64,000 bases of DNA, taken from the NCBI GenBank assembly GCA_964509365.1, contig CAZDWN010000001.1, positions 214,966-278,965 of the forward strand, in the 5' to 3' direction. Both the position numbers and the translations under genes were made by a program. Under the pieces are notes generated by a model. The model was not told the origin of the DNA. It did not search any database and saw only the letters and a program-made list of their open reading frames with translations. Positions 2,246-31,774 of the stretch are shown in pieces (position 1 is the stretch's first letter; every line of letters begins with the position of its first letter). The DNA is from an uncultured Pseudomonadales bacterium. GTDB taxonomy: Bacteria; Patescibacteriota; Microgenomatia; UBA1400; UBA12028.

Positions 2246-3010
<765 letters not shown>

Positions 3011-3086
3011 TTAAGTATACGACGTTGATTACAAAAAATATAATCAAGCCAATTTTTTTTGGACCGAATGATCGCCGCATGAACCT

Positions 3087-3255
3087 GAAAATATTGGACA
3101 TTTTCTCAAGCAAACCTAAGAACCCCACACTCCTAATGGTTCGTATGTACTCAACATTCGTACTTTGAATTCTGATCTTGAGATACTTTTCCCAGTCCAA
3201 AACTCAAACCACGTCCTATTTATTGAAGTATTCTTGAGAAAATGTCCAATTTTAT
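3087..3255. repeat. pair of 23-bp inverted repeats (3087-3110 and 3233-3255) flanking a 122-bp spacer in the divergent promoter region
   Basis: gaaaatattggacattttctcaag versus cttgagaaaatgtccaattttat; the arms are reverse complements with one mismatch. Confidence 0.6.
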
Positions 3256-3267
3256 AACTCACCATAC

Positions 3268-3372
3268 TATCTCCCATTCACTCTTCTCCCTTTTCTCTCC
3301 ACTCTTCACTCTCCACCTTTCACCCTTTCCCTTTCCTTTCGCTTCCCCCTTCCTACTTCCTACTGAAACGTC
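3268..3372 (+). repeat. strand-asymmetric polypyrimidine (C/T-only) tract
   Basis: About 100 nt that are almost exclusively C and T on the plus strand (ctcttctcccttttctctccactcttcactctccacctttcaccctttccctttcctttcgcttccccc...), about 500 nt upstream of the giant gene. Confidence 0.7.
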
Positions 3373-3750
3373 GACGAGCAAATGAGACGTGCGATCACTC
3401 TCAAACTTTTGTACTCAAAGTTTTCAAAAGAAACTTTGAAAAGTTTGACATCGCGATAACAGAAAATGGAAATTGGAAGGCGACAAATATTCATTTCCCT
3501 ATAATACGTACGCGAGGCTCGATCATTTCCATGCGGAAATGGTGCTTTTTTTCTCATTTTTTCTACACATATAAAAATCTTTCATTCGCTAGTGATCTCC
3601 GCCTGTATCCCGCAGTTTTTTCAACAAGAATTATTCCAAATTACCAGAGTTAAAGCGAAGATATTACAATTGCAGATCTGTTTATAGTGTGAAATACACT
3701 TTACAACATTTTTCAGGCTAAATGACCATATTTTTGAGCGGTATTCCCCG

Positions 3751-3779
3751 TTGACATGCCATGCAAAAAATCCCATTAT
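3751..3779 (+). promoter_or_regulatory. candidate sigma70-type promoter for the giant gene
   Basis: Perfect TTGACA (3751-3756), 17-nt spacer, then CATTAT (3774-3779), about 90 nt upstream of the ATG at 3872. Confidence 0.3.
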
Positions 3780-3871
3780 AGAAGTTGGACATTGCAACAA
3801 GAAAAAGTTAGACAGAACCAGAGAAAAAATAAAAAAACACAACGAAGAAAAAACTTACCCAAAGTGAAGTT

Positions 3872-6800
3872 ATGGATCAGCAGAGTCGAAATAGTTCCCA
3901 TCTTTCCATTCAAGAGGCTGCCCACATCCTCAAAGTTTCTGAAAAAACATTGCGACGCTGGGAGGACAAAAATATTTTGGTACCTATCCGGACTGCTGGT
4001 GGCCATCGTCGCTATACGCTTGATCAACTTCACGCATTCAAATCAAACAAGAAGAAAAATAGAGAAATTCAAGCCAGTGAAGCGATCTTTGTCCCTACAG
4101 TGGAAATTCGCCCAACTCTTATCAAGCAGGCTGTGGCTTCACCACTCCTCCATCGCCCCGCTCAAACGCGTTTCTCATTTCCAGTGAAGCGAGTGGTTAT
4201 ATTTGCTTCCTTAGTGTTGGCCCTTTTTGCCCTGAGCATGATTGCCAAGCCTATCACTAGTTCTTTGGCGTCAATCAAATTACCGACTCTACGTGGACCA
4301 CTCATTGCGACGAAGAAAACTCCTGCCAAAGCCATCACTAAAGCGTCCTCTGCTTCAGTGCTCGGCATAGCTGATGAATATATTCAGTTCACTCTCAATG
4401 TCGATACGGTTCTCAATGAGAATTTGAGAGTAGTCAAAGATGCGAGCATCGGCGGGACTCTGGGTGTCAATAGTGGTCGCATCGCGTCAGCAGCTTCCTC
4501 AGGAAGTATTTTTGATGACAATGTATCGACGTTGACGATTGGCTCATCAGGCACGGCAATTAGTATCGGCGCGACTACCGGAACGACGACAATCAACAAT
4601 CAAACAACAGCAGTCCGAGGCACTCTTACTCTTATTGGAAATCGGCTGACCTCGGCTGCTGATCTCGTCATCGATCCAGGTGGAGGCGGTGTGCTCATTG
4701 GGACAAGTACTCCTGCAAGCATCGATTCCGCCTCAGGCGATTTGTTCGTTTCTGACCAGTTTGAAGTCAAAGGTGCTTCGTATTTACCAACCATCATCAC
4801 CAATGGTGATACCATCACTGATTTCACCGGCACAGGACTCCAGGTCTCAGCTGGGATCCTCTCTACCACGCTAGGCACAAGTATCCAAAGCACTGAAATC
4901 GACAATTCAGCTATTACGAGTGACAAGCTAGCAGATGAGGCAGTGACCGAGCCAAAGCTCAATGTCACGAACGATGCAAGCAACGGATATATCCTGAGTT
5001 CTGCTGGTGATGGCAAGTTTACTTGGGTACCTCAAAATACCGCAGTGAACTTCTTTACCGATGCTGGACCAAATATCTACATCACCGACACCACCGATGA
5101 TCTCAGTCTCGGGACCACGAGCGATTTGGCCAAACTCGGAGTCAGCGGCGACAGCGACGAAATTCAGCTGTTGGCTCGTGGGAATACGACGCAGACGAGT
5201 GACATTCTATCTGTGCAAAATTCGAGTGGAACGAGCCTGTTTTCTGTGAGTGGTACCGGTGTGCTGACTGCATCGCAACTCAACTGTACGTCGTATGCAA
5301 ATGGAGGAGCGTTGACGACCAATGCATCTGGAGTGATTTCCTGTGCTGATGATGATGGTGGCGGCACCGCATCCCCATTCCAAACCACAGCTGGTGTCGC
5401 GAATCTGATTACCCCGACTGACGACGTGACAGTCGGGTCAAACACTGACTACGGTAAACTTGCAGTTGCTGGCGATAGCGATGAAGTCCAGTTCTTGGTT
5501 CACGGGAACGCCACACAAACCTCTTTCCTCGGTGTTTTCGAACAATCAACTGGCACAGATGTCTTTACAATCGCAAATAGCGGAGATCTCGTAACTGCTG
5601 GCAATTTAGCGGTCAATGGTGGAAGTATCACCACCACATCGACGACAGCAAATATCTTCAACTCGACGGTAACAACGCTCAATATCGGTGCAGCGGCAAC
5701 CAATATAAATATCGGAGTGGTCGGAGGGACAATGACCATCCCAAGTAATGTAACGATCACCGGGACGTTGACAACCGCTGCCAGTGATTTTGCTGCCGAT
5801 GGCGCAGTGACGCTCTCGCCTTCTGGCACAAATGACATCACCTTTAATCTCGATGCGAACTCAACCTTTATTCTCAATGGTGTACAGTCTGGTACTGCTT
5901 CCAATGGCTTGTGTCTCGATGGCAGCAATAACTTGATTACGTGTTCGACTGTCGGCTCGCTGACGTTGCAGTCTGCCTACAACAACGATGGCGACGGATC
6001 GGATACAGTGATTGCTCTAACTTCGGCTGATGATTCCGTGGTTATTCGAAATCCTGCTTCATCTGGAACAGATTCTGGGTACACATTCTTCATCGACCAA
6101 CTCAATACAGGAAACGTCGACGGCATTCGAGTTGATACAGCTGGTACAGGCACAGGCATCGCCGTCAACAGCTCTTCAACGGGCACACTTCTGAGTCTGG
6201 TCGCAAGCAGTATCGGGACGACGACGACAGGCATCTCAGTTCAAAACTCAGACACTGGAGTCATCACAAATGGATTGGATGTGTCCGATCCTGAGATCGT
6301 GAATGCCATTAGCCTGGGCAGCAACAGCATTTTGACGGGATCTGGCGCGGTGACTTCTGCAGAATTATTCAGACTCTCGGGGAAAGATGCTGCGCTCGTC
6401 GATACGAATGATGCAGTCGTAACTGCGATCACAGGCACAGGCGCGTTAAACACTGGAAGTATCACCAGTGGTTTTGGAAGTATTGACGTCGGCGCTGATG
6501 CAGTCGCCGCCGGGACGATCACCGTCAATGGTGACAGTATCACCGACTTCACAGGCAATGGCCTACAAGTGAGCGGAGGCAATCTCGCACTCAAGCTGCA
6601 GACTGCCACTGATGCACTCTCTTCCACTATTTCAAGTGGTTCTGGGCTAGAGACGTTTGCTGGCGGAGTCGCCATGCTCCAAGGGTGTACCGATGGCCAA
6701 ATTCTCAAATGGAACGAGACTACTGACGAGTGGGGTTGTGCAAATGACTCAGGAGCCACGAGCGCAATTATTAATGTCAAAAACAACGGCTCATCGGTAG

Positions 6801-9800: not shown

Positions 9801-12800
9801 GGGTACTTTCGTCTGGAGCCGGGACAAACTTGAGTATTATTCCGGGGACAACGGGATCGCTAAACCTCGCGACGACGAATACTGGAAATGTCGTGATCGG
9901 GAATGGCACTGGCACGTTTGCCCTGACAAGTAATGGAGGGTTAAATGTCTCAACGGCAGGCGTGCTCACTGGTGTGACGAGTATTGATACAATCGGAACG
10001 ACCGCCACTGGCCTGACATTCGCCGGCTCTGGAAGCATCGTTACAACCACTTCATCAGCGTTGACGCTCGACAGCGGTACTACTGGTGCAGTCAATCTTG
10101 GCTCAGGAAACAATGCCAAGACGATCAACATCGCCACTGGGACAGCTGGCGATACGGTGAATATCGCTACAGATAACTCCATCGCTGACACCATCAACAT
10201 CGCCAGTGCCCTGGATACGACCACCATTGCCGGATCATTTAAACTCACTGGCCTATCTGCACAAACTGGCTCACAATTGTGTATTACCGGTGGGAATGTC
10301 GTCGGTACCTGTTCATCTGGTTCAGGGGTCACCGGATCAGGATTAGCAAATCAAATTACCTATTGGTCATCAGGAACAGCAGTCACAGGAAATGCAAACT
10401 TCTTGTTTAACCCATCAAATGTCAGTGGAACTACAACGTCCTCATCAGTTGTCTTGACTGACGCATCGCTTACAACGGGTACAAATCTCTACGTTTCAGG
10501 GACCAGCACACCAGTTGCGAATACAGCGACATCACAAAATGTCATCGCCGTCACATACGCACAAGTCACTGCAGCCAACACCAATGGATTTACTGGCCTT
10601 GATCTCAAGTTCACCAATGCAAGTACCATCGCTGGAAATACAGAATATGCTGCTCGCATTCAAAACCAAGCAAGTGGAAGTAGCCCCTCAGATGCAGCGA
10701 TAGCCGCACTGCTTCAGCTTGATAACGCGGATACCACCTCAGGAAATTCGATTGTCGTCACCGATGCGCTCCAAATCAGTAACTCTGGAGCAATCGCGGC
10801 TGGCGTCACCAACGGTATCGCGTTCAGATCAACCACCATCGACACCGGAATTAACTTTGTCTCCACACCGACGACCAATTACATCAGTGGCACAAACTTC
10901 ACAGTCACCGCTGCAGGTGCAGAAACGCTTGGGAGTAACTTGACTGTCAATGGAACATCTTTGTCACTTGGGAATGGATCCGCCAGTACAATCTCGACCC
11001 CATCTGGCAATGCTGGGATCACCATCGCTCCAAATGGCACAGGGACCTTGAATCTTGCGACGACCAATACCGGCGCAGTCAGCATTGGAAATGCGACGGG
11101 GTCATTTGCCTTAGCTTCAAGTGGTGGATTAAACGTCTCTACCGGCGGGGCACTCACTGGAGTCGCGAGTATCGATACGATTGGGACCTCAGCCACTGGA
11201 TTGACGTTTGCTGGAGCTGGCACAATCGTCACAAACACTTCCTCTGCTCTAACACTTGATAGCGGGACAACAGGGATTGTGAACTTAGGCACAGGAAACA
11301 ATGCAAAGACGGTTAATATTGCGACTGGTACCGCCGGAGATACCGTAAACATTGGCACTGACAATTCGATAGCTGATACCATAAACATCGCCAGTGCCCT
11401 GGATACGACCACCATTGCCGGATTATTTAAACTCACTGGCCTCTCTGCACAGACAGGATCACAACTCTGTATCACTGCTGGAAATGTCATCGGTACGTGT
11501 GCCTCTGGGTCTGGAGTCACTGGATCAGGTGTCGCCAACCAAATCGCTTACTGGAGTGGGACGAATGCACTCACCGGAAATGCAAATCTCACATTTGATC
11601 CGACCGCGACCACTGGAAATGCGCTCGCACTTGCCGATACGTCACTCACCACTGGAAAGCTCACATCCTTTACGGGTACGAGTACACCAGTTGCAAACAC
11701 CGCGACCACTCAAAACTTATTTGCAGTCACGTATGCTCAGGGTACGGCGGCAAACACCAATGGCTTCGTTGGACTTGGCGTGAACTTTACAAATAGTCCA
11801 ACTATTGCTGGGAATACTGAGTATGCGGCTCAAATTCAAAATCAAGTGACGACGAATACGACTGACAATGCAGTCGCTGCACTCCTCCGACTTGATAACG
11901 CTGACACGAGTGGCACGGGCTCGACAGTCGTCACCGATGCATTGCAAATCAGTAACTCGGGAGCAATCGCCGCTGGCATCACCAACGGAATTGCGTTCAG
12001 ATCAACGACAATCGACACTGGGATCAACTTTGTCTCAACCCCGACGACCAATTACATCAGTGGCACAAACTTCACAGTCACCGCTGCAGGTGCAGCCACG
12101 CTTGCAAGCAATTTGACTGTGAATGGGACGACGCTCTCACTTGGCAACGGTTCTGCCAGCACAATTAGTACGCCATCTGGAAATGCTGGTATTAGTATTA
12201 CTCCAAACGGATCTGGGGCTCTCGCATTAGGGTCAGGAAATACAGGAAATTTCACCCTCGGCAACTCGACAGGTACTGGCGCGATCACCACCAGTGACTG
12301 GGTAATTGGCACCACTGGGAATATGACTGGCATCGGCAATATCGTCGCTGATGGAAATATCTCATTTACTCCAAGTGGAACATCAGACATCACGTTCAAT
12401 ACTGCTCCAGGTTCAGGCGCGAACTTGACGATCACTGGACTGACGAGTGGCACAGCATCAAGCGGCATTTGTCTTGACGGTTCAAATAATGTCATTACAT
12501 GTAATGCGGCAACGACCGTAAACTTACAAGATGCCTATGACCATGACACTGATACCGGAGACACGCTCATTACATTCTCTGCCGCCGATGACTCTCTGAT
12601 CTTTCGAAATCCTGCATCATCAGGAACCGATAGTACGTTCCTCTTAAACCTTGATCAACTTGCTTCAGGGACGCAAGATGTCTTGACGATCTCACAGGCC
12701 GGTACGGGAAATGCGTTCGCCATCACGACGACCAATGCAGGCACGACGCCGGCTGCCATCAAGATCAGTAACAGTGCAGGGACCATCACCGATGCAATTG

Positions 12801-15800: not shown

Positions 15801-18800
15801 GAGTCATCACGAATGCACTCAATGTATCTGATGCTGAGATAGTCAACGCCATCAACGTCGGCGCCAATGATATTACGGGTACGACCTATACACAGTACGC
15901 AACCGCTGGCGATCTGACGTTGGATTCTTCAAACGATATCAATCTTGATGCAGATGGTGCCGATGTGATTTTGAAAGACAATGGTGTCGTCTACGGCAAT
16001 CTTTCAAATTCAGCCGGTGCACTTTCAATCACTTCAAATACCACGAATGCTGCCAGTCTAGATACGGGCGCTGCTGGAGCGGTCAACATTGGAAACGCAA
16101 ATGCTTCTTCAGTAAACATTGGCGCTACTGCTGCCACGACCATCAGTATTGGGAATGGTGGAGCGTTGACACGAGCCATCAATATCGGTACAGGGACTGG
16201 TGCAGATACGATCAATATTGGTACTGGTGGAACCACCGCCGATGCCATCACTATCGGCAACAATGCTTCGAGTACTTCCCTCTCCTTCACCTCAGGCACC
16301 GGAGCTCAGACATTTACCAGTTCAGCAACCAGTGGAAATGCTTTTGTATATGCCGCAAACGCACTGACGTCTGGGAATGCCTTGAGTCTCTCATCGACGG
16401 CGACGACGTTAACCTCAGGGAAACTCGCCTCCTTTGACTGGAGTCCAGGGTCAGCGACACTCGCATCTGGTGACTTGTTCAACATCAATATTGGCACCAA
16501 TGGCACCACTACAGGAAGCTTGTTCTCTGTCAGTGATGCTGGGAGCAACCTCTTTACTGTCTCTGAGACTGGAGTTACTTCAAATCTCCCAACCTCATTC
16601 ACGTCAGCTGGAGATGTCTCGATGGCATATGACTTGCAATTTACGAATCAAACCTCAAGCTTTATCAAGAGCAAAGCACCACTCTACTTGGAAGCCGGAG
16701 AATCATTCGAAAGTAACGATTTGACGTTGCGTACGTATAACTCAGGTCGAGTCGTCCTGGACAATATCTCTGGAGGATACGCCCAGCTGAACTTCTTGGG
16801 CAAATCAACAACTGGTGATCCGGCAACTTGTTTACCAGGTGATATTTACTTCAACAGTACTGATGCGACCGTCAAAGCGTGTACAGCAAGCAATACGTGG
16901 GAGACGCTTGATGGCGGTGGAACTGTAACTGGATCAGGAGCAACAAATCAAATGGCATACTGGACGTCTGCTTCGAACTTATCTACATCTGGGAACTTCA
17001 CGTTTAATCCAAGCGCGACGAGCACTACTCAAAATGCAATTAGTAACAACGCATTGACGACTACCGGTCAGTTACTCACCTTGAGTTCGTCAGCTACTGG
17101 ATTGACCAGCGCAGGTTCAAACTTGGGATCGCTGTTTGATGTCACTGAGTCAGGAGTCATGACTGGATTCACTGGTTCACTTGCCAGCATCAATGCTTCT
17201 TCAATCAATAACGTTGGGAACACTGGAAATGCACTTAATATCAACTTAGCTGGCGCTGCTAATATCATGAAGGCAGTGAATATCACCGATAACTCGACCG
17301 GCGCACTGACGAACGGAGCGTTCTATATGAACATGACCGGCAACCACACCGGTAGTGCGTTTGCGATCGATGATGTGACGACAGCAGGAAACGTCATGAG
17401 CTTGCGTGACAATGCGCTGACTACTGGGACCGCGTTCCTTGCCTCACACACGACGTCAGTCATCGCCGCTGGTGGATCTTTGATTCGTGCCACATCAAGT
17501 TCAAACGACACCTCGACGACGACCGGTACACTGCTTGATCTCCAGTCATCTGGATCAACCGCTGGCACGATCGCCACGATTACGAATAACACAGCTTCCT
17601 TTACTGGTATCTCTGAGAGCATTTCAAACACAGGATTGACGACGGGAACTGGGCTCAACATTGCTGGTGGTTCCACCATGGCCGCGGGAGGAAAACTCAT
17701 TAATCTTGATATGAGTACATCCACAGCCGGCAATGGCCTCAACATCTCGTCTACCGGCGTCTACGCTGGGACAGGACTTGAGACATTGAGCTCGACCGGA
17801 TTGACCACTGGGACGGTACTGTCAGTTGCTTCGTCAGGAAACAGTCAAACAAGCGGCAAATTAATAAACGTCGCACAAACTGGCGTCACCACCGGATTCA
17901 CTGGCAACTTACTCAATCTTTCCTCGACGAGTACGACTGGAGCTGCGACATTTATCAACCTAGCAGCAGACGCCTCGACAGTCGGAATCGGACAAAAAAT
18001 CTCAATGAATGCACTGACCACTGGTACTGAACTCAGTTTGACGTCTACGTCAACCGCGATCACTTCCGGTAACATGTTTAGCTCTTCACTGACCGGAGCA
18101 TCTGCATTCACTGGTAACCTCAATTACTTTGACTGGACATCATCCGCAGCCACCGCCACTGGCGACCTGATGCGACTGCACATTGGTCCAAACAATAACG
18201 TGGGCAACTTGTTCAACGTCGTTGACGACACGACCAGTCTCTTCTCCATCTCAGAAGCAGCGGTCACTTCAAATCTCCCGACTTCATTCACTGCAGCTGG
18301 TGATGTCTCGATGGCGTATGACTTGCTCTTCACTAACCAAACATCCAGCTACATCAAGAGCAACGGACCACTTACGATCCAATCTGGTGAGAGTTTTGAG
18401 AACAACAACTTGACCCTGCAAACCTTCGGAACTGGAGCGATCATCCCAAGTGGAAAGTTTGCATTTGGATCACAACTCACGCTGACTGCAAACAGCACGA
18501 CGCCATCGGTGACTGCCGGCAACACGTACATCACTGCAAACACCTCGGGAACATTGATCACAAACTTTACGAATGGGACTCCAGGTCAAGTCATCTTCGT
18601 GAAGATTAATGACGTCAACACAGACTTTGACTGTACCAGTTCAAACATCGTCTGTGGGACCACTGACCTCACCACACCGACCACCGGAGATCAACTCGAG
18701 TTTATTTACGATGGAACGAACTGGAACTTACTCGCCTGGATGTTACCAGCAGTCAACAATGCAGATACCACATTTAGTGGCGGTGTCGACGTGGCTGAGT

Positions 18801-20320
18801 TCTACCCAAGTAGCGAGTCACTGCAGGCCGGAGATGTGATCAGTATCGATGCATCCACACCAGTGACAATCAAGAAAGGCGCTCAAGCAGATGGCCAGAA
18901 AGTGATCGGTATCATCTCTACTCAACCTGGTATGACTTTGGGAACTCAGACTCCAAACTCCTACAAAGTCGCACTTGCTGGTCGAGTCCCAGTCACTCTT
19001 GATCCAAATTCTCAAGCAATTCAGCCTGGTGACTTCCTCGCCGCATCTTCAGTCTCTGGAAAAGCAATCAAAGCCACGAGTGGCTACATCATCGGTCGAG
19101 CACTTGAGACATGGACACCAGGCAATGGGACAAATTCTGTCACCGTCTTTGTTGAGACTCACTACATCGATCCAATGATGGCATTGACGACGACTGGGAA
19201 TATGGCGATTGCCGAAGTCGTCAATGGCCAGATGCCATCCACTTTCTCGCTTGCGAATGCAAGTTCGTTCACCGACCGCATTGGGATCTTTACCAAGGCA
19301 ATCATCGCCAATTTGACTGCTGGTCGAATCAATTCGACTGAAGTGAATACGAGTCGCCTCTCGATTGATGGAAAGAGCGTCCAACAGTTGATTAGTGAAG
19401 CAGTGCAAAATGCATCTGTAAGTGGCACGTATGATGGAAACGCGACTATCTCTGGTCAGTTAGTTGCGCAAACGGCATCTGTCTCCGGTGATGCAACCGT
19501 GTCCGGCACTCTCTATGCCGATCGCATCGCCGCATTGGATCCAATCAAATCAGCACTGGACCTCAACACCGCGTCGATGAGTGCCCTCCTCTCTTCTTGG
19601 TCGAACTGGAGTGCGTCAGCCTCCGCCAATGTGATCACTGCAGATGCTGTCTTTGCAAATGAGTATTTGAATGTCCAAGGGAGTGCCAGTATTACTGATG
19701 CTGCGATCAACCACAGTTTGATTGTCGGCGGCTCACTTGCACTAGATCACAACTCACTGACATTGATTTCGGACAGTGAAGATACTCTGTACATCCAGGC
19801 GACGACATCTGGCAAACTCAACTTACTCGCAGGAACGATGACGTTGTCGACCGAAGGAGGTCTCTTCGTCAACACCAACGCAACTTTTGCCAAAGATGTG
19901 ACAGTCCAAGGGACACTTGAAGCTCGCACACTCGGAATTGCGACAGAGAGTGGCAAACTCGCGATTGCCAATAGTGAGCACTCTGAGGTCGCGAGTATCG
20001 ACGCCTCAGGATCAGCAACCTTCGCCAAACTCGCCTTGACGACAAGTGCTACCAGCTCAGCAGTGGTAAAACTTGACGCAACCGTCGGAAAAGCCACGTT
20101 GAAGAATGGTCAGACATCAGTGACGATTTATACCAACCAGATCTCAGACAAGTCTTTGATCTACATCACTCCGACGAGTAGTACAGGCAACAAAGTGCCA
20201 TTCATCCAGAGTAAGTTCTCCTATGACCCACAAAATCCAAGTATCGTCGGTAGCTTCACCGTCGCGATTGATGCCCCAGTGGCAAACGATATCTCCCTCA
20301 ACTGGTGGATCATCAACTAA
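3872..20320 (+). CDS. giant (5,482 aa) repetitive Thr/Gly/Ser/Asn-rich surface protein with N-terminal excisionase/MerR-type HTH and single TM helix
   Basis: Single uninterrupted ORF of 16,449 nt. aa 10-58 match the HTH_17/excisionase pattern (LSIQEAAHILKVSEKTLRRWEDKNILVPIRTAGGHRRYTLDQLHAF). One TM helix (VVIFASLVLALFALSMIA). Then several families of long internal repeats (LSLGNGSASTISTPSGNAG units; about 200-aa GSGxANQIxYW...TNYISGTNFTVTAAG units; about 190-aa NIGTGTGADTINIGTGG...FIKSKAPLYL units), paired Cys motifs (CLTSGNCxG, CLDGSNNxITC) and a non-repetitive C-terminal region. Antisense ORFs in the track are Pro/Val-rich mirror artefacts. Confidence 0.85.
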   Translation: MDQQSRNSSHLSIQEAAHILKVSEKTLRRWEDKNILVPIRTAGGHRRYTLDQLHAFKSNKKKNREIQASEAIFVPTVEIRPTLIKQAVASPLLHRPAQTRFSFPVKRVVIFASLVLALFALSMIAKPITSSLASIKLPTLRGPLIATKKTPAKAITKASSASVLGIADEYIQFTLNVDTVLNENLRVVKDASIGGTLGVNSGRIASAASSGSIFDDNVSTLTIGSSGTAISIGATTGTTTINNQTTAVRGTLTLIGNRLTSAADLVIDPGGGGVLIGTSTPASIDSASGDLFVSDQFEVKGASYLPTIITNGDTITDFTGTGLQVSAGILSTTLGTSIQSTEIDNSAITSDKLADEAVTEPKLNVTNDASNGYILSSAGDGKFTWVPQNTAVNFFTDAGPNIYITDTTDDLSLGTTSDLAKLGVSGDSDEIQLLARGNTTQTSDILSVQNSSGTSLFSVSGTGVLTASQLNCTSYANGGALTTNASGVISCADDDGGGTASPFQTTAGVANLITPTDDVTVGSNTDYGKLAVAGDSDEVQFLVHGNATQTSFLGVFEQSTGTDVFTIANSGDLVTAGNLAVNGGSITTTSTTANIFNSTVTTLNIGAAATNINIGVVGGTMTIPSNVTITGTLTTAASDFAADGAVTLSPSGTNDITFNLDANSTFILNGVQSGTASNGLCLDGSNNLITCSTVGSLTLQSAYNNDGDGSDTVIALTSADDSVVIRNPASSGTDSGYTFFIDQLNTGNVDGIRVDTAGTGTGIAVNSSSTGTLLSLVASSIGTTTTGISVQNSDTGVITNGLDVSDPEIVNAISLGSNSILTGSGAVTSAELFRLSGKDAALVDTNDAVVTAITGTGALNTGSITSGFGSIDVGADAVAAGTITVNGDSITDFTGNGLQVSGGNLALKLQTATDALSSTISSGSGLETFAGGVAMLQGCTDGQILKWNETTDEWGCANDSGATSAIINVKNNGSSVGTNVDTLNFTTDFLVAESPSGTDNISVADDILNFTELSDSLVLDANTTITAGSALSLTIGNNATLTTTGSGSIIATDLVCADCVALGSETTGNYVATITAGNGLTGDVSSEGSTPTLAVGAGNGILSNANDVAVDQSYGFTFTGNVSFSPSGTNNLSFTGDANSQINLTGLQATSAVSGLCLDASNNVVTCAVGGSMSSFSLAGDSGSDTVSNGQTATIAGGTNGIDTVESGRTVTLNLDTTEITNATFGTGAAGFTWTFDASAGTDTTIAFGNNTQTFTTGTATFTGNLTAQGTTLSLGNGSASTISTPSGNAGLTIAPNGTGTLNLATTNTGNVVIGNGTGSFQLTSSGGLNVSTGGALTGVASLDTISTSATALGFAGTGTLSSGAATALNIVPGTSGALNLATTNTGNVVIGNATGTFVLNSNGGLNVTSGGALTGVASLDTISTSATALGFAGAGTITSAGANALTLDSGSTGTINIGTGTSGKTINVGTSNSNADTINIGSALDTLALAGTTGITGTTTITGTANINSSGAATTNIGTGTGNVVIGNGTGTFALTSNGGLNVSTAGVLSGITGYTQSSGAFSLTLSTTNSALFASTTSGADALAIKPQSALTSAGFTGTVSTVDLTAARTYTFPDATGDVCLTSGNCAGVGGGLTGSGTTGQIAYFNGSGSLTSEASGFAWDATNNRLGIGTDTPTGMLHVTGAVTGKALTIFNETGDQNILAASASGTTVATLDRNGQFMVNTTTANADKIALVGNATGANTFTGSVSVADLTADRTFTFPDATGTVCLTSGNCTGAGGSMASFNLAGDTGSDAVADAQTATIAGGTNGIDTTETGRTVTLNLDATEISGTSSSGATTFSDGTQSTVTWTFNTSGATDTSLAFANNAVTLTAGTTTMSGNLTVQGTALSLGNGSASTISTPSGNAGITIAPNGTGSLNLATTNTGAVTIGNATGAFQLISNGGLNVSTGGALTGVASLDTISTSATAIGFAGVGVLSSGAGTNLSIIPGTTGSLNLATTNTGNVVIGNGTGTFALTSNGGLNVSTAGVLTGVTSIDTIGTTATGLTFAGSGSIVTTTSSALTLDSGTTGAVNLGSGNNAKTINIATGTAGDTVNIATDNSIADTINIASALDTTTIAGSFKLTGLSAQTGSQLCITGGNVVGTCSSGSGVTGSGLANQITYWSSGTAVTGNANFLFNPSNVSGTTTSSSVVLTDASLTTGTNLYVSGTSTPVANTATSQNVIAVTYAQVTAANTNGFTGLDLKFTNASTIAGNTEYAARIQNQASGSSPSDAAIAALLQLDNADTTSGNSIVVTDALQISNSGAIAAGVTNGIAFRSTTIDTGINFVSTPTTNYISGTNFTVTAAGAETLGSNLTVNGTSLSLGNGSASTISTPSGNAGITIAPNGTGTLNLATTNTGAVSIGNATGSFALASSGGLNVSTGGALTGVASIDTIGTSATGLTFAGAGTIVTNTSSALTLDSGTTGIVNLGTGNNAKTVNIATGTAGDTVNIGTDNSIADTINIASALDTTTIAGLFKLTGLSAQTGSQLCITAGNVIGTCASGSGVTGSGVANQIAYWSGTNALTGNANLTFDPTATTGNALALADTSLTTGKLTSFTGTSTPVANTATTQNLFAVTYAQGTAANTNGFVGLGVNFTNSPTIAGNTEYAAQIQNQVTTNTTDNAVAALLRLDNADTSGTGSTVVTDALQISNSGAIAAGITNGIAFRSTTIDTGINFVSTPTTNYISGTNFTVTAAGAATLASNLTVNGTTLSLGNGSASTISTPSGNAGISITPNGSGALALGSGNTGNFTLGNSTGTGAITTSDWVIGTTGNMTGIGNIVADGNISFTPSGTSDITFNTAPGSGANLTITGLTSGTASSGICLDGSNNVITCNAATTVNLQDAYDHDTDTGDTLITFSAADDSLIFRNPASSGTDSTFLLNLDQLASGTQDVLTISQAGTGNAFAITTTNAGTTPAAIKISNSAGTITDAIDLTDATGITNAINVAGNKIKGTTGSIDYTNFDVDGATGNITVAAGVGLDSNAAGILALGNTTATTVSIGSTAATTLNLGASGSLTRAINIGTGTGADTINIGTGGTAADAITIGNNASSTSLAFTSGTGVQTFTSSATSGNAFVYAANALTSGNELNLSSTSTTLTSGKLASFDWSPGSATLATGDLFNINIGTNGTTTGNLFSVSDTASNLFTVSESGITANLPTAFTAAGDVTMAYDLQFTNQTSSFIKSKAPLYLDVGETFENNDLTLRTYNFGRVIADVSNNGGVLISSNPAASTQNGLLQVNGAATGKALAIFNETGDQKILSASASGTTVATLDRAGQFTVNTTTANADKLALKGNATGSNSFTGTLSTADLTVGDQTFNLPDLAAATSATICVSTGNCAGLGTGVTQSGTNASGQIAYFTSTNNITSDATYLLSPNATTGTALSLTDTALTTGKLTSFSGTSTPVANTATTQNLFAVTYAQGTAANTNGFVGLGVNFTNSPTIAGNTEYAAQIQNQVTTNTTDNAVAALLRLDNADTSGTGSTVVTDALQISNSGAIAAGVTNGIAFRSTTIDTGINFVSTPTTNYISGTNFNVAATGAITVAGGVGLDTNASGVLALGNTTATTVNIGNTAATTLALGAGGALTRTINIGTGTGVDTIHIGDGGTGADVITIGSTNAGNVSIKSAAALNLTGGTSSLIDFPNFDVSTTGLVTFLGGLTPDITTQSNNSLTITPAGTGDLVFAGDADTTFENNLSNTSAFNINGTTASSRTGVDMVTISQASGAGSSNSNLLQLTNNDADSTSAALAISQVGNGTGIDISGVTSGSGITLALALSAGGSGIAFPVGYGISDAYGIIFNGSGTVTAGLSGSMIEASPTRIYQGAGTISETGNFLKLARTETQNTGVGTIAITGDVASLSSTCTISGGVCTDNSNILSLAQNFASATGAVLDITNAGTGKGTLLTSSSTGDLMELDSSGAVTTTNGLVIAATNGSGVITNALNVSDAEIVNAINVGANDITGTTYTQYATAGDLTLDSSNDINLDADGADVILKDNGVVYGNLSNSAGALSITSNTTNAASLDTGAAGAVNIGNANASSVNIGATAATTISIGNGGALTRAINIGTGTGADTINIGTGGTTADAITIGNNASSTSLSFTSGTGAQTFTSSATSGNAFVYAANALTSGNALSLSSTATTLTSGKLASFDWSPGSATLASGDLFNINIGTNGTTTGSLFSVSDAGSNLFTVSETGVTSNLPTSFTSAGDVSMAYDLQFTNQTSSFIKSKAPLYLEAGESFESNDLTLRTYNSGRVVLDNISGGYAQLNFLGKSTTGDPATCLPGDIYFNSTDATVKACTASNTWETLDGGGTVTGSGATNQMAYWTSASNLSTSGNFTFNPSATSTTQNAISNNALTTTGQLLTLSSSATGLTSAGSNLGSLFDVTESGVMTGFTGSLASINASSINNVGNTGNALNINLAGAANIMKAVNITDNSTGALTNGAFYMNMTGNHTGSAFAIDDVTTAGNVMSLRDNALTTGTAFLASHTTSVIAAGGSLIRATSSSNDTSTTTGTLLDLQSSGSTAGTIATITNNTASFTGISESISNTGLTTGTGLNIAGGSTMAAGGKLINLDMSTSTAGNGLNISSTGVYAGTGLETLSSTGLTTGTVLSVASSGNSQTSGKLINVAQTGVTTGFTGNLLNLSSTSTTGAATFINLAADASTVGIGQKISMNALTTGTELSLTSTSTAITSGNMFSSSLTGASAFTGNLNYFDWTSSAATATGDLMRLHIGPNNNVGNLFNVVDDTTSLFSISEAAVTSNLPTSFTAAGDVSMAYDLLFTNQTSSYIKSNGPLTIQSGESFENNNLTLQTFGTGAIIPSGKFAFGSQLTLTANSTTPSVTAGNTYITANTSGTLITNFTNGTPGQVIFVKINDVNTDFDCTSSNIVCGTTDLTTPTTGDQLEFIYDGTNWNLLAWMLPAVNNADTTFSGGVDVAEFYPSSESLQAGDVISIDASTPVTIKKGAQADGQKVIGIISTQPGMTLGTQTPNSYKVALAGRVPVTLDPNSQAIQPGDFLAASSVSGKAIKATSGYIIGRALETWTPGNGTNSVTVFVETHYIDPMMALTTTGNMAIAEVVNGQMPSTFSLANASSFTDRIGIFTKAIIANLTAGRINSTEVNTSRLSIDGKSVQQLISEAVQNASVSGTYDGNATISGQLVAQTASVSGDATVSGTLYADRIAALDPIKSALDLNTASMSALLSSWSNWSASASANVITADAVFANEYLNVQGSASITDAAINHSLIVGGSLALDHNSLTLISDSEDTLYIQATTSGKLNLLAGTMTLSTEGGLFVNTNATFAKDVTVQGTLEARTLGIATESGKLAIANSEHSEVASIDASGSATFAKLALTTSATSSAVVKLDATVGKATLKNGQTSVTIYTNQISDKSLIYITPTSSTGNKVPFIQSKFSYDPQNPSIVGSFTVAIDAPVANDISLNWWIIN

Positions 20321-24824: not shown

Positions 24825-25568
24825 TTAGATTCGTTTCATTGAATCAAGCCGATGTCGAATTGCGAATTGAAAAGAATCGAGGAGTTCTTTGATAGCCTTA
24901 GAGGCAACCATCTTCGATGTGCCCACTTGCCTATCCTGAAATCGTACCGGAAGTTCTCGAAATGAAGCGGTATGTTTTGAAAGTTCATACAACATTGCTG
25001 GAAAAAATGCGTATCCATTGGGAAGAGCACCAAAATTTATTTCATCGATAAGTCCATTGACTTTGATTGCGCGTCCCGCGCTCGTATGTTCATGGACGGC
25101 AGTCATTCCTGCAATCCATTCCGCAAGGATCGTATTCGCCACGAAGTGACCCACTCGTCGCGACAGGCTCGAACTATAAAATTCTGCCTCATTTACTCTG
25201 GAAGCTATGACGACGTCATTTTCCGAAAGGAGATCAATCATTGAGAGTATAGTTTCGGGTGGAAACACGAAATCTGATTCATAGGTAACAATTCCTTCAG
25301 CGTGCATATTTTCCATCGCATACGCATAGCCTCGCTTCATTGCTGCTCCGATTCCGGACTTATCCCCATATGATACAAAAAAATGTGGATATGTCCGAAC
25401 AAAAGAATCCAACACTGCTCGAGTGCCATCCTGAGAATTATCATCGACAATGAGTGTGGAAAAAGAAATGTTTGGACGCATCAAATAAATTTTCGAGTAC
25501 AGCAGTGGTACCAGCTTTTCCAAATTCACCTTTTCGTTGTAAGTCGGAATGAGAATTGTTACTTCCAT
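24825..25568 (-). CDS. GT2 polyprenol-phosphate sugar synthase (Dpm1/AglJ/ArnC-like)
   Basis: 247 aa. ILIPTYNE ... VDDNSQDGT ... acidic DxD-like pocket, typical of dolichyl/undecaprenyl-phosphate glycosyltransferases. Divergent from the LamG operon. Confidence 0.8.
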   Translation of the reverse strand: MEVTILIPTYNEKVNLEKLVPLLYSKIYLMRPNISFSTLIVDDNSQDGTRAVLDSFVRTYPHFFVSYGDKSGIGAAMKRGYAYAMENMHAEGIVTYESDFVFPPETILSMIDLLSENDVVIASRVNEAEFYSSSLSRRVGHFVANTILAEWIAGMTAVHEHTSAGRAIKVNGLIDEINFGALPNGYAFFPAMLYELSKHTASFRELPVRFQDRQVGTSKMVASKAIKELLDSFQFAIRHRLDSMKRI

Positions 25569-25668
25569 TTTTTCATTGTACTGCCAGCTCGCATATACGT
25601 CTATTCTTTGGGTACAAAAGACGGTGGAAAAGAGGCATACTAACTTGGAGAAATACTCTCAATTTTTT

Positions 25669-28600
25669 ATGCACTTTTTTACGTATCAGCGGCGTACAGG
25701 CCACAGGAAAAAATCCAACCGACGAGTCTTCATGTTGGCACTTACCGTTCCAATTGTTCTCGTGCTCCTCCCTGCTTTGTACTTCGGCCTCAAAAGAGCT
25801 TTTCCAGCCAAAGCTGCATGGATGGATAGCAATTGGCGGTATCGCAAGACTGTCGCGATCGTGAATAATGGCTCGACTCAGACGTCGTATCAAGTCATGG
25901 TACCAGTTGACACCTATACGTTGATCAACGCAGGAAAAATGAAATCAGATTGCAGTGACCTGCGGTTTGCGGATAGTGCTGGCTCGACAATGGGCTATTA
26001 TCTTGAGTACTGCGTCAATACCGCAAGCAGTGGAAACTCCGTAGTTTGGGTGACCGTACCGTCGATCACTGGTTCTGCGACGACCAATGTCTACATGTAC
26101 TATGGCAATGGGAGCGCCTCTGCAGTCAGTGCATTTACTTCTGCACCGACTGGCATTGACATCGGCAGTGGCGCAGATGGAAATATCGCGATTGCAGCGG
26201 ATACAAATATCAATACGGCTGATTCCATCAACACTGGTACTGCCCGCGCATGCAGCGATACTACTGGCGGTGACGCTGTCATTTACACGACAGGAGTGAA
26301 TGCTGTCGCTGGCAACACGTCAGTGAATGTCGCGACTGCTGTGAGTTCGAGTTGCTTAAACTCCGGCGACGAAGTCATTATCATCGTTCTCTCTGGTGCC
26401 AATTCAGGGAAATTCGAATTCAATCGCGTCACCTCCACTCCGAGTGGCAATATGATTTCTCTCAGTCATGCGCTCGTTAATTCATACAATGGCGCCGCAG
26501 AAAAAGTTGTGGTCCAGCGCGTACCCAATTATGCAAACGTCACAACCAGTGGCACTGCAAACTTTACTCCCTCCGCATGGAACGGTACATCTGGTGGTGT
26601 GATGATGTTTCGAGCCAGTGGAAATGTCGTCGTCGCCGCGAGCACTGCTATTCATTCAAATTTCTTGGGAAGCAATGGTGGGACGTTTGGAAATGCTGGA
26701 TCTGGAGGAGCGGCCGGCGGTAGCGGCGGCACAGCTGGAACAAGCGGAAGTAGTGGCGTCACTGGAAGTGGCAATGGCGGAGGTGTCTTGGCTACTGCAC
26801 CTGGCACTGGAGGAAATGGTGGAGCGAACGGATCGAACACAGCATCTCTAGGAAACATCCCAGGTGGTGGTGGAGGCGGAGGAGGTGGTGGTGGTGGAGG
26901 CGGTGCCTACGGCACAGCCGCGACTGGAGGCACCGCCGGAAGTGCCGGAGGAAATGCAGGAAACGGAACCTCCACTGCTTCGTATGCTGGCGCGAAAGGA
27001 AATGCTGGCCAGGCAGGAGCCGCAGGCTCTACCTATGGGAACACGAACTTCACGACTTCAAATGCGAATCTGTATTTAGGTTCTGGCGGAGGAAGTGGCT
27101 CTGGAGGAGGAGGAGGTGGTGGTGCTGATTTATTCTTGGCTGCCACCGGTGGAACCGGAGCCAATGGTGGCCGCGGTGGCGAAGGTGGCAATGGTGGCGG
27201 CATCGTTGGAATTTTTGCAAACGCGATTATCAATAATGGCAATATTGGCTCGAATGGACAAAACGCAGCTGCCAGTAATGGAGGAAATGCCGGTGTCGCC
27301 GGATCAGGTAACTCAGCTGGCGGCGGTGGTGGTGGAGGCGGTGGTGGTGGAGGCGGTGGTGGCTCAGGAGGCTCAATTTGGCTGTCCGCAAATAGCGTCA
27401 CGCTTGGGACCTCAAAAGTTGTTGCCAACGGAGGCACTGCTGGCGTCGGTGGCGGCGCGGGAGCTGGTGGAACTTGTGGCAGTGGTGCGAATGATGGTGG
27501 TGGTGGCGGTGGAGGTGGAAATACTGGTGGTGCCGGAGGTACTACGAGCTGTCTCAATGCTGGGACAGCGGGAACAACTGCGGCAAGTTCAGGAAATGGT
27601 GGTAGTGGTGGTCAAGGTCGCATCTTCCAGCAATACAACTCAAATTCAGGGACGACCTCCCCCGCCGCTTCTGGCGTCCAGCTGCCGGTCGCAGCAGCTC
27701 CGACGAGTGAGGAATCTGTCACAAGCTCAGCAAATGTCGAAGCCGTAAACTGGAAATTTGATGAAGGATATGGGACGACTACGGCCGACTCTATGTCAAA
27801 TGCGACGACAGCGACTCTTGCAGGAGCTGCCTTGCCGACTTGGGCAACGGAAGACCAATGTATCTCTGGAAAATGTCTGTATTTCGGAGGCGTCTCCTCA
27901 AAACTGACGGTCGCTAATCCCATTTTGGTGAGTAGTATCTCGTTTTGGATTCGCCCGATTACCACTGCTTCATCAGCGTTCTTTGATTTTGGAGGTGGCA
28001 CAGTCACGATAAAAAGTGACGCTTCAAGCAACTTGACCACCACTGGGTTTACCGGCGCCACCATGTATCTCAATGGCGCAGCATGTACTACCTGTACTCT
28101 TGTCGCGAACCGTTGGCAACACATTGCGGTGATTAGTACTGCAGCGATCACCAGTACAAGCAGTATGACTGTCGCCACCGCGACTCAGTTTTACAAAGGC
28201 TACATGGATGAAGTACGTATCTACTCGTCGACAGTGACCGCTTCACAGATTCTCTCAGAGTACACTAGTCGAGGAAGTATCAACGGGACTTCCGTGCAAA
28301 CTGGCCAGGCATCCCAAGCATTTTTGAGCGATGGTCTTGCTGCGTATTGGAAACTCGAAGAGTCCTCGACCAGCTCAGCTGATAGTACAAATAACGGTAT
28401 GACTGGCACTTGGAATGGTGCCCCTGCCGTCGCAACCGGAAAATTTGGGAAAGCGATCTCCTTTAGCGGGACACCCACTGCCTATGTCAACGTGCTTGAT
28501 AATACGATCCTTGATCCAAGCTATATTACTATTGCTGCTTGGATTAACCCTACGAGCGGGACAGATCGACTCCTCGTCGCCAAGGATGTAAGTTACACAT

Positions 28601-31600
28601 TTGGGATCAATAGCTCTGGATTTTTAAGTTGTGAGATTTACAATGGCTCGGGCTACCTCCCTTCTGCAGTGAGCACCGTGGCTGTCTCGACCGGTACCTG
28701 GCAACATGTCGCCTGTACTTTTGATGGGACAACTACCGCAGTGTATCTCAATGGACAGTTGGTTGGTTCAATCACCACAAGCCCACCAAAAACGGTAAAC
28801 AACGGCTCAAATTCTCTCCGGCTTGGTCATCACGTCGCGGGTACATACGGGGACTACAATGGCAAACTTGACGAGGTTCGTATATACAACCGAGCCTTAC
28901 CCATCAATGAATTGCGTCAATTATATTCCTGGGCTCCAGGGCCGGTTGGCTACTGGCCGTTTGACGAAAATACAGGCCAAATTGCCAATGATCTGAGTGG
29001 CAATGATTGGTCTGGAGACCTTGGCACGACAACTGGTGTCGATACGACAGATCCAGCCTGGGATACTGGGAAGTATGGCTCGGCACTACGATTTACGACG
29101 AGTGCCGACACCTCGGTAAACATTGGAGATGACGATGCGCTCGACGCAGATGCAAACTCGAGTATGTCTTTTGGGCTTTGGGTGAAAGTAACTGGCGTTT
29201 CTTCGTTCAATAATGACACAATCCTCATGGACAAGGAAAATATTGGCGCAGATGCGGGATTTACTTTGGCAATTGGAAATGACTCTTGCGGATCTTTTGG
29301 CCAGATTTGTGTCACCTTGTGGGATGCAGGAGCGGCGATCACCTATTCGATGCACACGACGACTACCGTACCTGATTCAAACTGGCATCATATCGCTTTC
29401 GTCTTTGATCGAACTAGTGAGACGAACACGAATATCTACCTTGATGGAGTCGTCCAGCCGGTTACTCGAACTGGTACATTTGCCAGTCTGGGAAGTCTTG
29501 CGACGACCGATGTACTCTGCGTCGGGATTGAGTCATCAGGCTCAAACTGCGGAGGACTTCATGAACTGACAGGTTCTGTCGACGATATCAAATTTTACAA
29601 TTATCCTCGGACGCAATCGCAAATCATTGAAGACATCAACGGCGGACATCCGATTGGAGGCTCCCCGGTTGCATCACAGCTTATTTATTGGAATTTCGAT
29701 GAACAATCCGGTGCAGGTACGAGCAACAAAGGGTTTGGAGGCACGACGTACAATGGGACCGCCAACGGACCGCAATGGTCAGGTATCTCCAGATCAGTAT
29801 GTAAAGTAAATGGCTGTCTGAAGTTTGTAAGCGGGACAGATTACGTCAGCGTGGCCGATGCAAACTTAGCCTCACTTGATAGTCTGGCTGGCTTTGGCGT
29901 GTCCTTTTGGATAAATCCGCAGACGATGGGCACTGATAAATCGATTCTTTCAAAAAACGATTCAGCGCAGAGAAGTTTCGCTATCGTCACCGATTCGTCA
30001 GATAACACCAAGCTACGTGTCCATATCGCTGCAAGCACTGCTGAAGCAGCAAATACGACCTACTGCACGACAGATTCCGGAGCATTGACGACGAGTGTTT
30101 GGCAGCACTTCACGATTTCCTATGATGGCTCACAATCGACTGCAGCAAATCGAGTGAAAGTCTATAAGAATGGGAGTCAAATAAATTGCTCCATGACGGG
30201 CACATTCCCTACTGCAATGACTTCGGGAAGCACCTCAGATTTGCGAGTTGGTGACGATGTTTCAGCGACATACACCGCCTTATTGGCTTTGATTGATGAG
30301 GTCAAAGTATACAATGCAGCCATATCTGCAGACCAGGCAAAACTTGAAGCAAACTACGGATCTGCTGCCGCCTACTCTACAGGCAATGACGAAGTCACGC
30401 AGATCACAGGAACTGCCGAGACTCCACCAGTCGGCTACTGGCCGTTTGATGACAACACCGGGACCACTGCCTATGACCGCAGCGGCAACAGTAATGATGG
30501 GACCTTAACAAGTTTTGTCAGTAATATCTGGGTACCAGGCAAAGTTGGCTCGAGTCTCAATTTTGATGGCGTCGATAGTCGCGTGACCATTTCCAATTCA
30601 TCGACTTTAGGAGATTTGCCAAGCAGCGGAATGACCTTATCCGCTTGGGTATATCCTCGCTCGACCGGTGAATCTGCTGGAGGTCGTATCGTATCCAAAG
30701 ACGACACCGGACCTGCTAATGGCTGGCAATGGCTGATTGAGAGTACCTCAAAGATGGAGTTTCAAGCAGATTTTACGGGTGGGACCAATACTGACCTTGA
30801 TGTGAAGACGACGGGGACACTCACACTCAATACCTGGCAACATATCGCCCTCACCTGGGATGGCTCAGCAAACGCATCAAATGTGCACATTTACATAAAC
30901 GGTGTTGAGCAAACCCATAGTACCAACACGAGTGGAGACTCAACCAGAGTCTCTGATGTGACAAAAAACTTCATGATTGGCAATGGCCAGACAGGGACAC
31001 GTACGTTTGATGGAATGATCGATGATGTCCGCGCATACAACTATGTACGGACAGCGACTCAAATTGCCTATGATTACAATCGAGGTGGTCCTACCCGATG
31101 GTACAAATTCGATGATAACGTTTCGGGAAATACTCAAACGCTCAAGGATGCGTCAGGCAATACTCTGAATGCCACTACTCATTATGGTGCAAACACGACT
31201 GGCATGGACTGCACCGCAGAGGCGAAGTTCAATAAAGGTTGTTCTCTTGACGGAGTTGATGACTATATCGATATGGCCAACACAGGTTTCCCCACTGGAG
31301 ATTTTACCTTCTCAGTGTGGATAAACCCGACAGCGACAGCGAGTTTCCCTGTTGTATATTTACCGAATGGTAGCGGCAGCTACGTCTTTGAAATACTAAC
31401 TATTAACAGCACAAATAAAATGGAACTGTCACTCAATGCAAGCGGAGTCGTTCTGGACACAAACCAGACAATTACTCCTGGTGCATGGAACCACGTCGTC
31501 TTTACTCGTTCTGGAAGCTCCATAAAAGCGTACATAAACGGAAAGCTCGACTCTGTGACTGCGACATATGGGACTGCCATGACACTAGGAAGTTGTAACA

Positions 31601-31773: not shown

Positions 31774-31774
31774 T

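Follow-up and report, generated by a model that had tools for sequence, protein, structure and literature searches.

A conserved BldC-like DNA-binding head on a predicted membrane-anchored giant protein of Patescibacteria, with repeated boxes at its own promoter

ToxR, CadC and TcpP combine an N-terminal cytoplasmic DNA-binding domain, a flexible linker, a single transmembrane (TM) helix and an extracytoplasmic C-terminal domain. RodZ likewise has an N-terminal cytoplasmic helix-turn-helix (HTH) domain, a single TM helix and an extracytoplasmic C-terminal domain. We know of no giant surface adhesin (Ebh, SiiE, LapA) or phage tail fibre with a cytoplasmic DNA-binding domain. Patescibacteria, the members of the candidate phyla radiation, are thought to live attached to hosts; they have few recognisable regulators, and much of their tiny genome is made up of giant surface proteins of unknown control. 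Here, we analysed a stretch of 64,000 nucleotides (nt) from an uncultured bacterium of the GTDB lineage Patescibacteriota, Microgenomatia, UBA1400, UBA12028 (assembly GCA_964509365.1, contig CAZDWN010000001.1, positions 214,966 to 278,965; hereafter the window), in which one gene joins a DNA-binding HTH domain, a TM helix and a giant, predicted extracellular region in a single chain of 5,482 amino acids (aa).

For the DNA-binding end of this protein, the closest described system is BldC of Streptomyces (PDB 6ama and 6amk), a free MerR-like winged helix of 68 residues that has neither a coiled-coil dimerisation helix nor an effector domain and acts as a repressor (PMC5859096). BldC binds head-to-tail to direct repeats such as 5'-CAATTCGGACAATTCGGACA-3', where R30 (at a C-G pair) and K26 make the base contacts in the major groove, the wing residues H46, R47 and R48 lie in the AT-rich minor groove, and T27, T29, W31 and K33 contact the backbone (PMC5859096). 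The MerR-like winged HTH (wHTH) of RacA from Bacillus subtilis (PDB 5i41 and 5i44) makes the same arginine base contact (PMC5859096). The bitopic regulators ToxR, CadC and TcpP bind DNA while staying in the membrane (for CadC, PMC5430869).

The open reading frame (ORF) begins with an ATG at 3872, with no earlier start codon between it and the upstream stop, and contains no in-frame stop over its 5,482 codons, so that the uninterrupted frame from HTH through TM helix to ectodomain claimed in the original prediction is borne out. The same 5,482-aa product was called by an independent gene caller on an NCBI contig of 326,014 bp. Only one Kyte-Doolittle window of at least 1.6 was found in the whole protein, at aa 106-125 (KRVVIFASLVLALFALSMIA), in agreement with the single TM helix first proposed. 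AlphaFold2 (AF2), run on aa 1-330 with a ten-sequence alignment, predicted a beta-alpha-alpha-beta-beta-alpha winged helix at aa 11-63 (pLDDT ~90), disorder at aa 65-102 and a helix at aa 105-124 (pLDDT ~81); within aa 1-330 confidence was reached for the HTH and the TM helix alone, and the early ectodomain was of low confidence.

T, G, A, S and N account for 61% of the ectodomain, which also has internal repeats and 14 closely spaced Cys pairs. Neither the ectodomain nor the C-terminus had any sequence match in Pfam, PHROG, NCBIfam or PDB, and no recognisable sensor domain was found in the ectodomain by these searches. In size, extracellular character and low-complexity T/S/G/N-rich repeats, it resembles giant adhesins and fibres such as Ebh, SiiE, LapA and phage tail fibres, from which it differs in that no sequence similarity to them was detected in these searches. 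An LPXTG-like C-terminus is absent from the protein.

Because of the positive-inside rule, the strongly basic HTH and its basic tail, the lone hydrophobic segment and the Cys-paired ectodomain, a bitopic topology with the N-terminus inside and the C-terminus outside is predicted. Across 75 loci of the family described below, the 15 residues on the N-terminal side of the TM helix contain on average 3.07 K+R, versus 1.81 after it, and K+R is higher on the N-side in 52 loci and lower in 9. The ToxR/CadC-like layout read from the letters alone is therefore supported by prediction, through the positive-inside signal, the one hydrophobic segment and the 14 Cys pairs. No consistent A-x-A-like signal-peptidase motif was found after the TM helix across homologues, and the helix is treated here as a probable uncleaved anchor. 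A juxtamembrane motif that may serve for docking or cleavage, (L/I)Y.x(I/L)P...K+, is semi-conserved before the TM helix in many homologues, with a weak match in the window protein (LLHRPAQTRFSFPVKR).

The likeness to ToxR, CadC and TcpP lies in the overall bitopic topology with an N-terminal head. Unlike in this protein, their HTH is of the OmpR/PhoB type, their sensor domains have 100-250 aa (against a fibre of ~5,350 aa here), and they are activators binding upstream of the promoter, for which autoregulatory boxes at the start site are not a hallmark. Xre-type and OmpR/PhoB-type (Trans_reg_C) HTH domains were not found by Pfam, which returned MerR-class models only; lacking the OmpR-type domain, the protein falls outside the ToxR/CadC/TcpP family. 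Specifically, residues 11-59 matched MerR (1.2e-12, 47.9 bits; cut-off 28.2), MerR_1 (2.2e-10, 41.0 bits; cut-off 21.6) and HTH_17 (8.9e-10, 39.1 bits; cut-off 27). The excisionase model TIGR01764 scored 27.7 bits against a cut-off of 28.8, and the PHROG match of the HTH is labelled 'excisionase'. The original assignment to HTH_17/excisionases was thus right in that a real HTH stands above the Pfam cut-offs, far outside chance, and wrong in its emphasis, since BldC and MerR are closer than the excisionases.

In line with this, the top Foldseek matches in PDB were all MerR-like wHTH domains (CarH, RacA, BldC and mycobacteriophage Xis), with a TM-score to target of 0.70-0.75 for BldC (rmsd 1.7-2.0 A over 49-51 residues, 37-39% identity), and a PDB sequence search returned the same set of BldC, RacA and CarH. 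No effector domain (Pfam) and no coiled coil (AF2) follows alpha3 (aa 50-63), and the chain is predicted to be disordered up to the TM helix; the head shares this with BldC and differs in it from classical MerR proteins, which carry a coiled-coil dimerisation helix and an effector domain. In the HMMER alignment, the nine DNA-contact residues of BldC correspond to K25, T26, R28, R29, W30, D32, H45, R46 and R47, of which seven (K25, T26, R29, W30, H45, R46 and R47) are identical to BldC and invariant or nearly so across the family alignment. On sequence and predicted fold, the head is a member of the MerR/BldC-type winged HTH class.

Conservation of the fusion was examined in two samples. With aa 1-330 as the query, a word-indexed protein search returned 21 relatives, and all the informative ones carry the HTH, a variable linker, the TM helix and the first ectodomain motifs in one chain. 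A scan of bacterial assemblies, with one genome per species and a pattern that fixed the recognition-helix sequence, gave 79 loci. The recognition helix T[LI]RRWE occurs in 81 ORFs of the window and these loci, and a TM helix follows in the same frame 60-180 residues onward in 78 of them; two of the three ORFs without one are cut by the locus end, and the third (L065, from a cyanobacterial bin) is a stand-alone protein of 101 aa. The fusion is kept in 75 of 78 informative loci. Between HTH and TM helix no stop was found in any of 78 loci at 27-64% identity, though the linkers are not conserved and vary in both sequence and length (25-143 residues in the 75 measurable loci). The original prediction had left it to orthologues to distinguish a conserved fusion from a split HTH gene; across the 79 loci the fusion is conserved and the separating stop is absent. 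Judged by this comparison, the fusion is a real, conserved design and not an artefact.

Searched exhaustively, 1.84 billion cluster representatives yielded 14,001 relatives at E <= 1e-3, with 101 at E <= 1e-30. Many of these representatives, from clusters at 50% identity, are 3,000-7,954 aa long and match the profile over their first 350-460 residues. Among the genomic loci, most ORFs run off the 10-kb flank at >1,000-3,700 aa; complete ones have 741-3,556 aa, and there are short forms of 235-305 aa as well. The C-terminal region of the giant protein is conserved in the complete orthologues L001, L009, L011, L015, L017, L021 and L055. The named loci come from Woesebacteria, Levybacteria, Chisholmbacteria, Amesbacteria, Gottesmanbacteria, Shapirobacteria and the 'Patescibacteria group'. 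Many records of metagenome-assembled genomes titled 'uncultured Gammaproteobacteria' or 'uncultured Pseudomonadales' (among loci L002-L079) carry the same gene pair; because the Microgenomates-specific neighbour gene is present, these titles look like placeholders or mislabels.

Some family members depart from the single giant chain. In the relative P0010 (550 aa), two tandem HTH domains are followed by a proline-rich linker and a TM helix, which would provide a built-in dimer of DNA-binding heads. On a Gottesmanbacteria chromosome (L075), two short paralogues of 240 and 235 aa lie 7 kb apart (9974-10696 and 17129-17836) and consist of HTH, TM helix and a small ectodomain; therefore, the HTH-TM module also occurs without a giant fibre. 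The claim that such a fusion is not a known architecture was too broad, because it is common in sequence databases, annotated at the domain level only, where such proteins are named 'excisionase family DNA binding protein' or left unnamed. No description of an HTH-TM-giant-fibre family was found in searches of open-access literature, or in the text of a giant-gene preprint and of the BldC paper.

The promoter region is conserved together with the protein. In the 160 nt upstream of 29 members, a TTGACA -35 element and a -10 element are followed almost everywhere by at least two copies of TTGGACA/TTAGACA, arranged as direct repeats or as inverted pairs TTGGACAT-N11-13-ATGTCCAA. With a loose pattern, the boxes reach 8.57/kb between -250 and +30, versus 0.89/kb in the other 1.17 Mb. 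At least one box is present in 77 of 80 loci and at least two in 61, and their number varies from 1 to 6. The 80 upstream regions contain 158 strict boxes, compared with 7.4 +/- 2.9 (maximum 19) in 200 dinucleotide-preserving shuffles; this corresponds to 1.975 strict boxes per region, versus 0.073 upstream of 383 other ORFs from the same loci (27-fold), of which only 4 have at least two boxes. Of the 69 clusters of at least two strict boxes found within 1.2 Mb, 45 are directly upstream of the HTH gene, and about 10 of the other 24 precede the divergent partner gene described below. The conservation of these boxes at the module's own promoter is newly found here.

The position and flanks of the boxes are also constrained. 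Counted from the start of the -35 element, the first box begins 33-34 nt (19 loci) or 44-50 nt downstream, over or just past the expected transcription start, which is a repressor-like position. In classical MerR systems, by contrast, the operator lies within a 19-20 bp spacer between -35 and -10; here the spacer has 17 nt and the boxes lie past the -10. At positions -4 to -2 of the box, A is found in 84% of cases each, versus 36% in the background; this holds for the 134 boxes that do not adjoin a -10, and the flanks were outside the search pattern. Therefore, the full box is AAA(c/a)TTGGACA. Preferred spacings are 10 bp (9 cases), 21-24 bp and 32 bp for direct pairs and 17-20 bp for inverted pairs (22 cases). 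In two loci, pairs of TTGGACA were also seen upstream of genes whose products start like the ATP synthase gamma subunit (L047, 6567-6588; L061, 1738-1772), which hints at a box regulon reaching atp genes in some genomes.

The window itself shows the same arrangement (Table 1). When it was aligned with L002, L003 and L004, the invariant islands were the -35, part of the -10, box 1 and box 2. Seven TTGGACAT sites occur in the window, three of them inside the 870-nt spacer between the giant gene and its divergent partner, where two inverted-repeat arms of 26 nt, 88% complementary, hold one box each. The proposal that the unusual upstream region serves autoregulation gains real support from the boxes in both arms and at orthologue promoters; its further step, a coupling of surface contact to transcription, is speculation.

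Table 1. Positions of the features in the window; numbering starts at its first letter
Feature	Position	Strand	Basis
Single ORF: HTH, linker, TM helix and giant ectodomain, 5,482 aa	3872..20320	+	Translation, independent gene call
MerR/BldC-like winged HTH, aa 11-63	3902..4060	+	Pfam, NCBIfam and PDB sequence matches, AF2, Foldseek
Basic tail KSNKKKNRE, aa 57-65, following the HTH domain			
Cytoplasmic linker, aa 64-105, predicted disordered	4061..4186	+	AF2, alignment
TM helix KRVVIFASLVLALFALSMIA, aa 106-125, K-R before it; signal-anchor type, N-in	4187..4246	+	Hydrophobicity, AF2
Ectodomain, ~5,350 aa	4247..20317	+	Composition, null database searches
C-terminal-region domain, aa ~5011-5100, homologous to the partner's extracytoplasmic domain	18902..19171	+	BLASTP
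Predicted sigma-70-like promoter TTGACA-17 nt-CATTAT, 10/12 matches	3751..3779	+	
Box 1, TTGGACA, 34 nt from the -35 start, over the expected transcription start	3785..3791	+	
Box 2, (AAAG)TTAGACA, direct repeat 23 nt after box 1	3808..3814	+	
Left inverted-repeat arm, 26 nt, with box TTGGACAT at 3094-3101	3090..3115	+	
Right inverted-repeat arm, with box AAAATTGGACAT (3242-3249, minus), pointing to the 252-aa gene	3228..3253	-	
Divergent partner gene, 252 aa: signal peptide, beta domain, two-helix C-terminal hairpin	2246..3004	-	

Together, sequence, structure prediction and conservation establish one conserved protein, predicted to be bitopic, with a cytoplasmic BldC-like head, a flexible basic linker, a signal-anchor helix and an extracellular fibre of ~5,350 residues. 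From its association with the boxes and by analogy with BldC, we consider it probable (roughly 60%) that this membrane-tethered module acts as a repressor at its own promoter and, in some genomes, at the divergent partner's. With its A-tract and the TTGGACA that follows, the box is similar to the BldC repeat 5'-AATTCGGACA-3' (AATT, then CGGACA), and the repeats of both systems are short, combine an AT tract with GGAC(A) and vary in number and orientation. The nine 10-bp direct pairs and the variable box numbers are consistent with BldC-like multimers on repeats of 9-10 bp, and no second HTH of BldC/MerR-like kind is encoded in the window. In the proposed mechanism, the heads of membrane-inserted molecules would bind the AAAnTTGGACA boxes over or just downstream of their own transcription start and, in some genomes, also those at the partner's promoter. 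Binding would take place as side-by-side monomers or multimers, much as in BldC, on direct (~10 or 23 bp) or inverted (~18-20 bp) repeats, and the bound heads would block transcription. Such negative feedback would tie the synthesis of a costly fibre to the copies already anchored in the membrane. Bound by tethered heads, the locus would of necessity stay at the membrane of a very small cell. Host contact, pulling, shedding or proteolysis may let the ectodomain modulate binding.

Several points weigh against repression by the tethered head. The link between HTH and box is one of association and analogy, and a soluble paralogue elsewhere in the genome could be the real reader of the boxes. The promoter and the transcription start are predictions from sequence, and repression, as opposed to activation, is deduced from the box position only. 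Since the loci were picked via the HTH gene, the box enrichment was measured against their own flanks only, and by design of the search the recognition helices in the sample are near-identical. The likeness to BldC has its limits, too: the top NCBIfam model is the BldC family NF033787 (3.2e-09), yet the 36.5 bits lie below the family cut-off of 77, and K33 of BldC is replaced by Asp (D32). Unlike the free cytoplasmic BldC, which is a wHTH and nothing else, the domain here forms the first 1% of a membrane-anchored protein, with inverted and direct box pairs equally common. Additionally, in a motif-first metagenome scan for the exact palindrome TTGGACAT-N11-13-ATGTCCAA, none of 80 hits adjoined an HTH ORF, a result that tells neither for nor against the model, as the pattern is expected ~700 times per 10^12 nt by chance. 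Of these hits, 48 lay inside ORFs, and their GC content ranged from 0.29 to 0.75; the exact palindrome is carried by only 2 of 80 true loci, and the positive control L006 was recovered.

Other readings of the locus differ in how the head works or whether it reads the boxes at all. In one, resembling Notch, SREBP or regulated intramembrane proteolysis, the tethered form is inactive or partly active and cleavage in the linker or TM helix, set off by events at the fibre, frees a soluble BldC-like HTH fragment of ~70-100 aa for the boxes. The linker, being long, disordered and poorly conserved, would be accessible to proteases, many homologues carry the semi-conserved motif just before the TM helix, and BldC itself works as a free 68-aa protein (PMC5859096). 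We nevertheless regard proteolytic release as unlikely, as no protease gene is conserved beside the module, no cleavage motif was identified, and a linker of 40-140 aa in a tiny cell plausibly lets the tethered HTH reach DNA. Similarly improbable is a head without a transcriptional role, either a RacA-like anchor for DNA or the nucleoid or a RodZ-like handle for protein binding, with the boxes read by another factor. RacA is among the closest matches in sequence and fold and ties DNA to the envelope, the N-terminal HTH and single TM helix of RodZ serve protein binding, and the link of this HTH to the boxes is indirect. RacA, however, is a soluble coiled-coil protein that docks on DivIVA and has many GC-rich binding sites in the origin region. 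Here, no coiled coil is predicted, and in the 1.2 Mb of flanks covered the box clusters lie locally at the module. RodZ is small, has no conserved operator and binds MreB through an Xre-type HTH, a type not found here. Moreover, a head that does not act on transcription fits poorly with the concentration of boxes at the module promoters (45 of 69 clusters, against 4 of 383 controls with at least two boxes), with the retention of the base- and groove-reading residues of BldC, and with the resemblance of the box to the BldC repeat.

Much less probable than these is an artefact in which a sequencing error or the loss of a stop merged two genes, a small HTH gene and an exoprotein starting at GTG 4184. 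That GTG is indeed in frame, at codon 105 just before the TM helix, and in the syntenic orthologue L001 a frameshift breaks the gene into two ORFs, of 532 and 2,919 aa, which overlap in different frames (L001 11503-11599). The L001 break, however, lies not between HTH and TM helix but ~390 residues past the TM helix (aa 124-142 in L001), and its second ORF has the conserved C-terminus; an assembly error, a pseudogene or a programmed shift could account for this split. As the original prediction had noted, no purine-rich, Shine-Dalgarno-like tract precedes GTG 4184, and an internal start there was rejected on this ground and on the comparative evidence, no locus having a stop between HTH and TM helix. 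Least credible of all is that the HTH is what remains of an excisionase or recombination directionality factor from a mobile element, fused by chance. The matches to HTH_17, TIGR01764 and the PHROG 'excisionase' point that way, whereas TIGR01764 falls short of its cut-off, integrase, transposase and phage genes are absent nearby, and the locus is syntenic across many genomes. A mobile-element origin was rejected on this genomic context, in which the neighbours are iPGM, the partner, methyltransferase, glycosyltransferase and surface-protein genes.

The wider locus is chromosomal and syntenic in 64 other genomes, with iPGM and ATP synthase genes adjoining; the window encodes iPGM, a C-methyltransferase, a glycosyltransferase, Obg, Rho, a histidine kinase, a sortase and two tRNA-Ala. 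The partner gene is adjacent and divergent to the HTH gene in 64 of 79 loci (median spacer 672 nt), and 506 relatives of its product, all of ~250-260 aa, were found at E <= 1e-10. Boxes lie near the partner gene in 25 of 64 pairs (~40% of genomes), versus 57 of 64 for the HTH gene.

In the partner model, which is confident (pLDDT 86), the beta domain is similar in fold to decoration or cement proteins of phage capsids and to the pre-mature phi29 appendage (Foldseek 4e-05 to 5e-04). It is homologous to ~100 aa in the C-terminal region of the giant protein (BLASTP 32% identity, E 6e-08); the predicted fold of this shared domain is like that of phage decoration proteins or appendages. Because the beta domain is common to both, the giant and partner proteins may interact. 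The C-terminal hairpin of the partner aligns structurally with ATP synthase c subunits (TM-score 0.74-0.89, rmsd 1.2-1.7 A, 24-31% identity); it has the loop motif GVEAIGRNP and lacks the conserved membrane carboxylate. Some partner homologues are named 'ATP synthase subunit c' by JGI, and in L001 the partner adjoins an atp operon without a separately called c subunit. The partner may serve the organism as its real c subunit or may form a ring that acts as a socket for the fibre.

Other features of the window were recorded as well. An Rfam search of 2900-4000 gave chance-level matches only. The spacer contains a CT-rich polypyrimidine tract of ~100 nt (3262-3365, plus strand), which falls within a 131-codon stop-free frame (3258-3650) without a convincing start, and, in its middle, a terminator-like hairpin with a T-run (3522-3543) on the strand of the giant gene, which could end a small upstream transcript. 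A single TTGGACAT at 53912-53919 (minus strand) lies upstream of rho (52256-53821, minus strand), within chance expectation; TTTTCTCAAG follows it 7 nt later, the same extension as in the arms at 3094 and 3242. Three consecutive giant proteins of 2,074, 1,526 and 1,548 aa are encoded at 25549-40967 (plus strand), none with an HTH head, and they contain DUF2341, multiple Laminin_G_3 and neurotoxin-receptor-binding-like domains. At 54010-58057 (minus strand), a 438-aa sortase-domain protein adjoins a 900-aa DUF11/DUF7601 surface protein, a pair that suggests a Gram-positive-style anchoring system in this region.

The locus apparently represents a membrane-bound one-component regulator made from a BldC-class head and a giant fibre, with a conserved operator of its own. 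A more far-reaching scheme, tentative and on balance not expected to hold, would make of it a self-counting and possibly contact- or force-sensitive circuit without bacterial precedent: every fibre exported would leave one head beneath the membrane, and the heads would multimerise on the box array, hold the locus at the membrane, aid co-translational export and shut the gene off, until loss, engagement or cleavage of the fibre on host contact lifted the block in a Notch-like manner, and the same heads would co-regulate the partner, which, with its subunit c-like hairpin and the domain shared with the fibre's C-terminal region, may form the membrane socket of the fibre.

If repression by the tethered head is true, a surface fibre that carries its own DNA-binding head and has an operator at its own promoter would be a minimal coupling of surface to expression, and the BldC family would be widened from small free proteins to membrane-anchored giants. 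The model could be tested with the 70-residue domain and 60 bp of DNA, without cultivating the organism, and the box motif offers a handle for defining regulons in uncultured bacteria.

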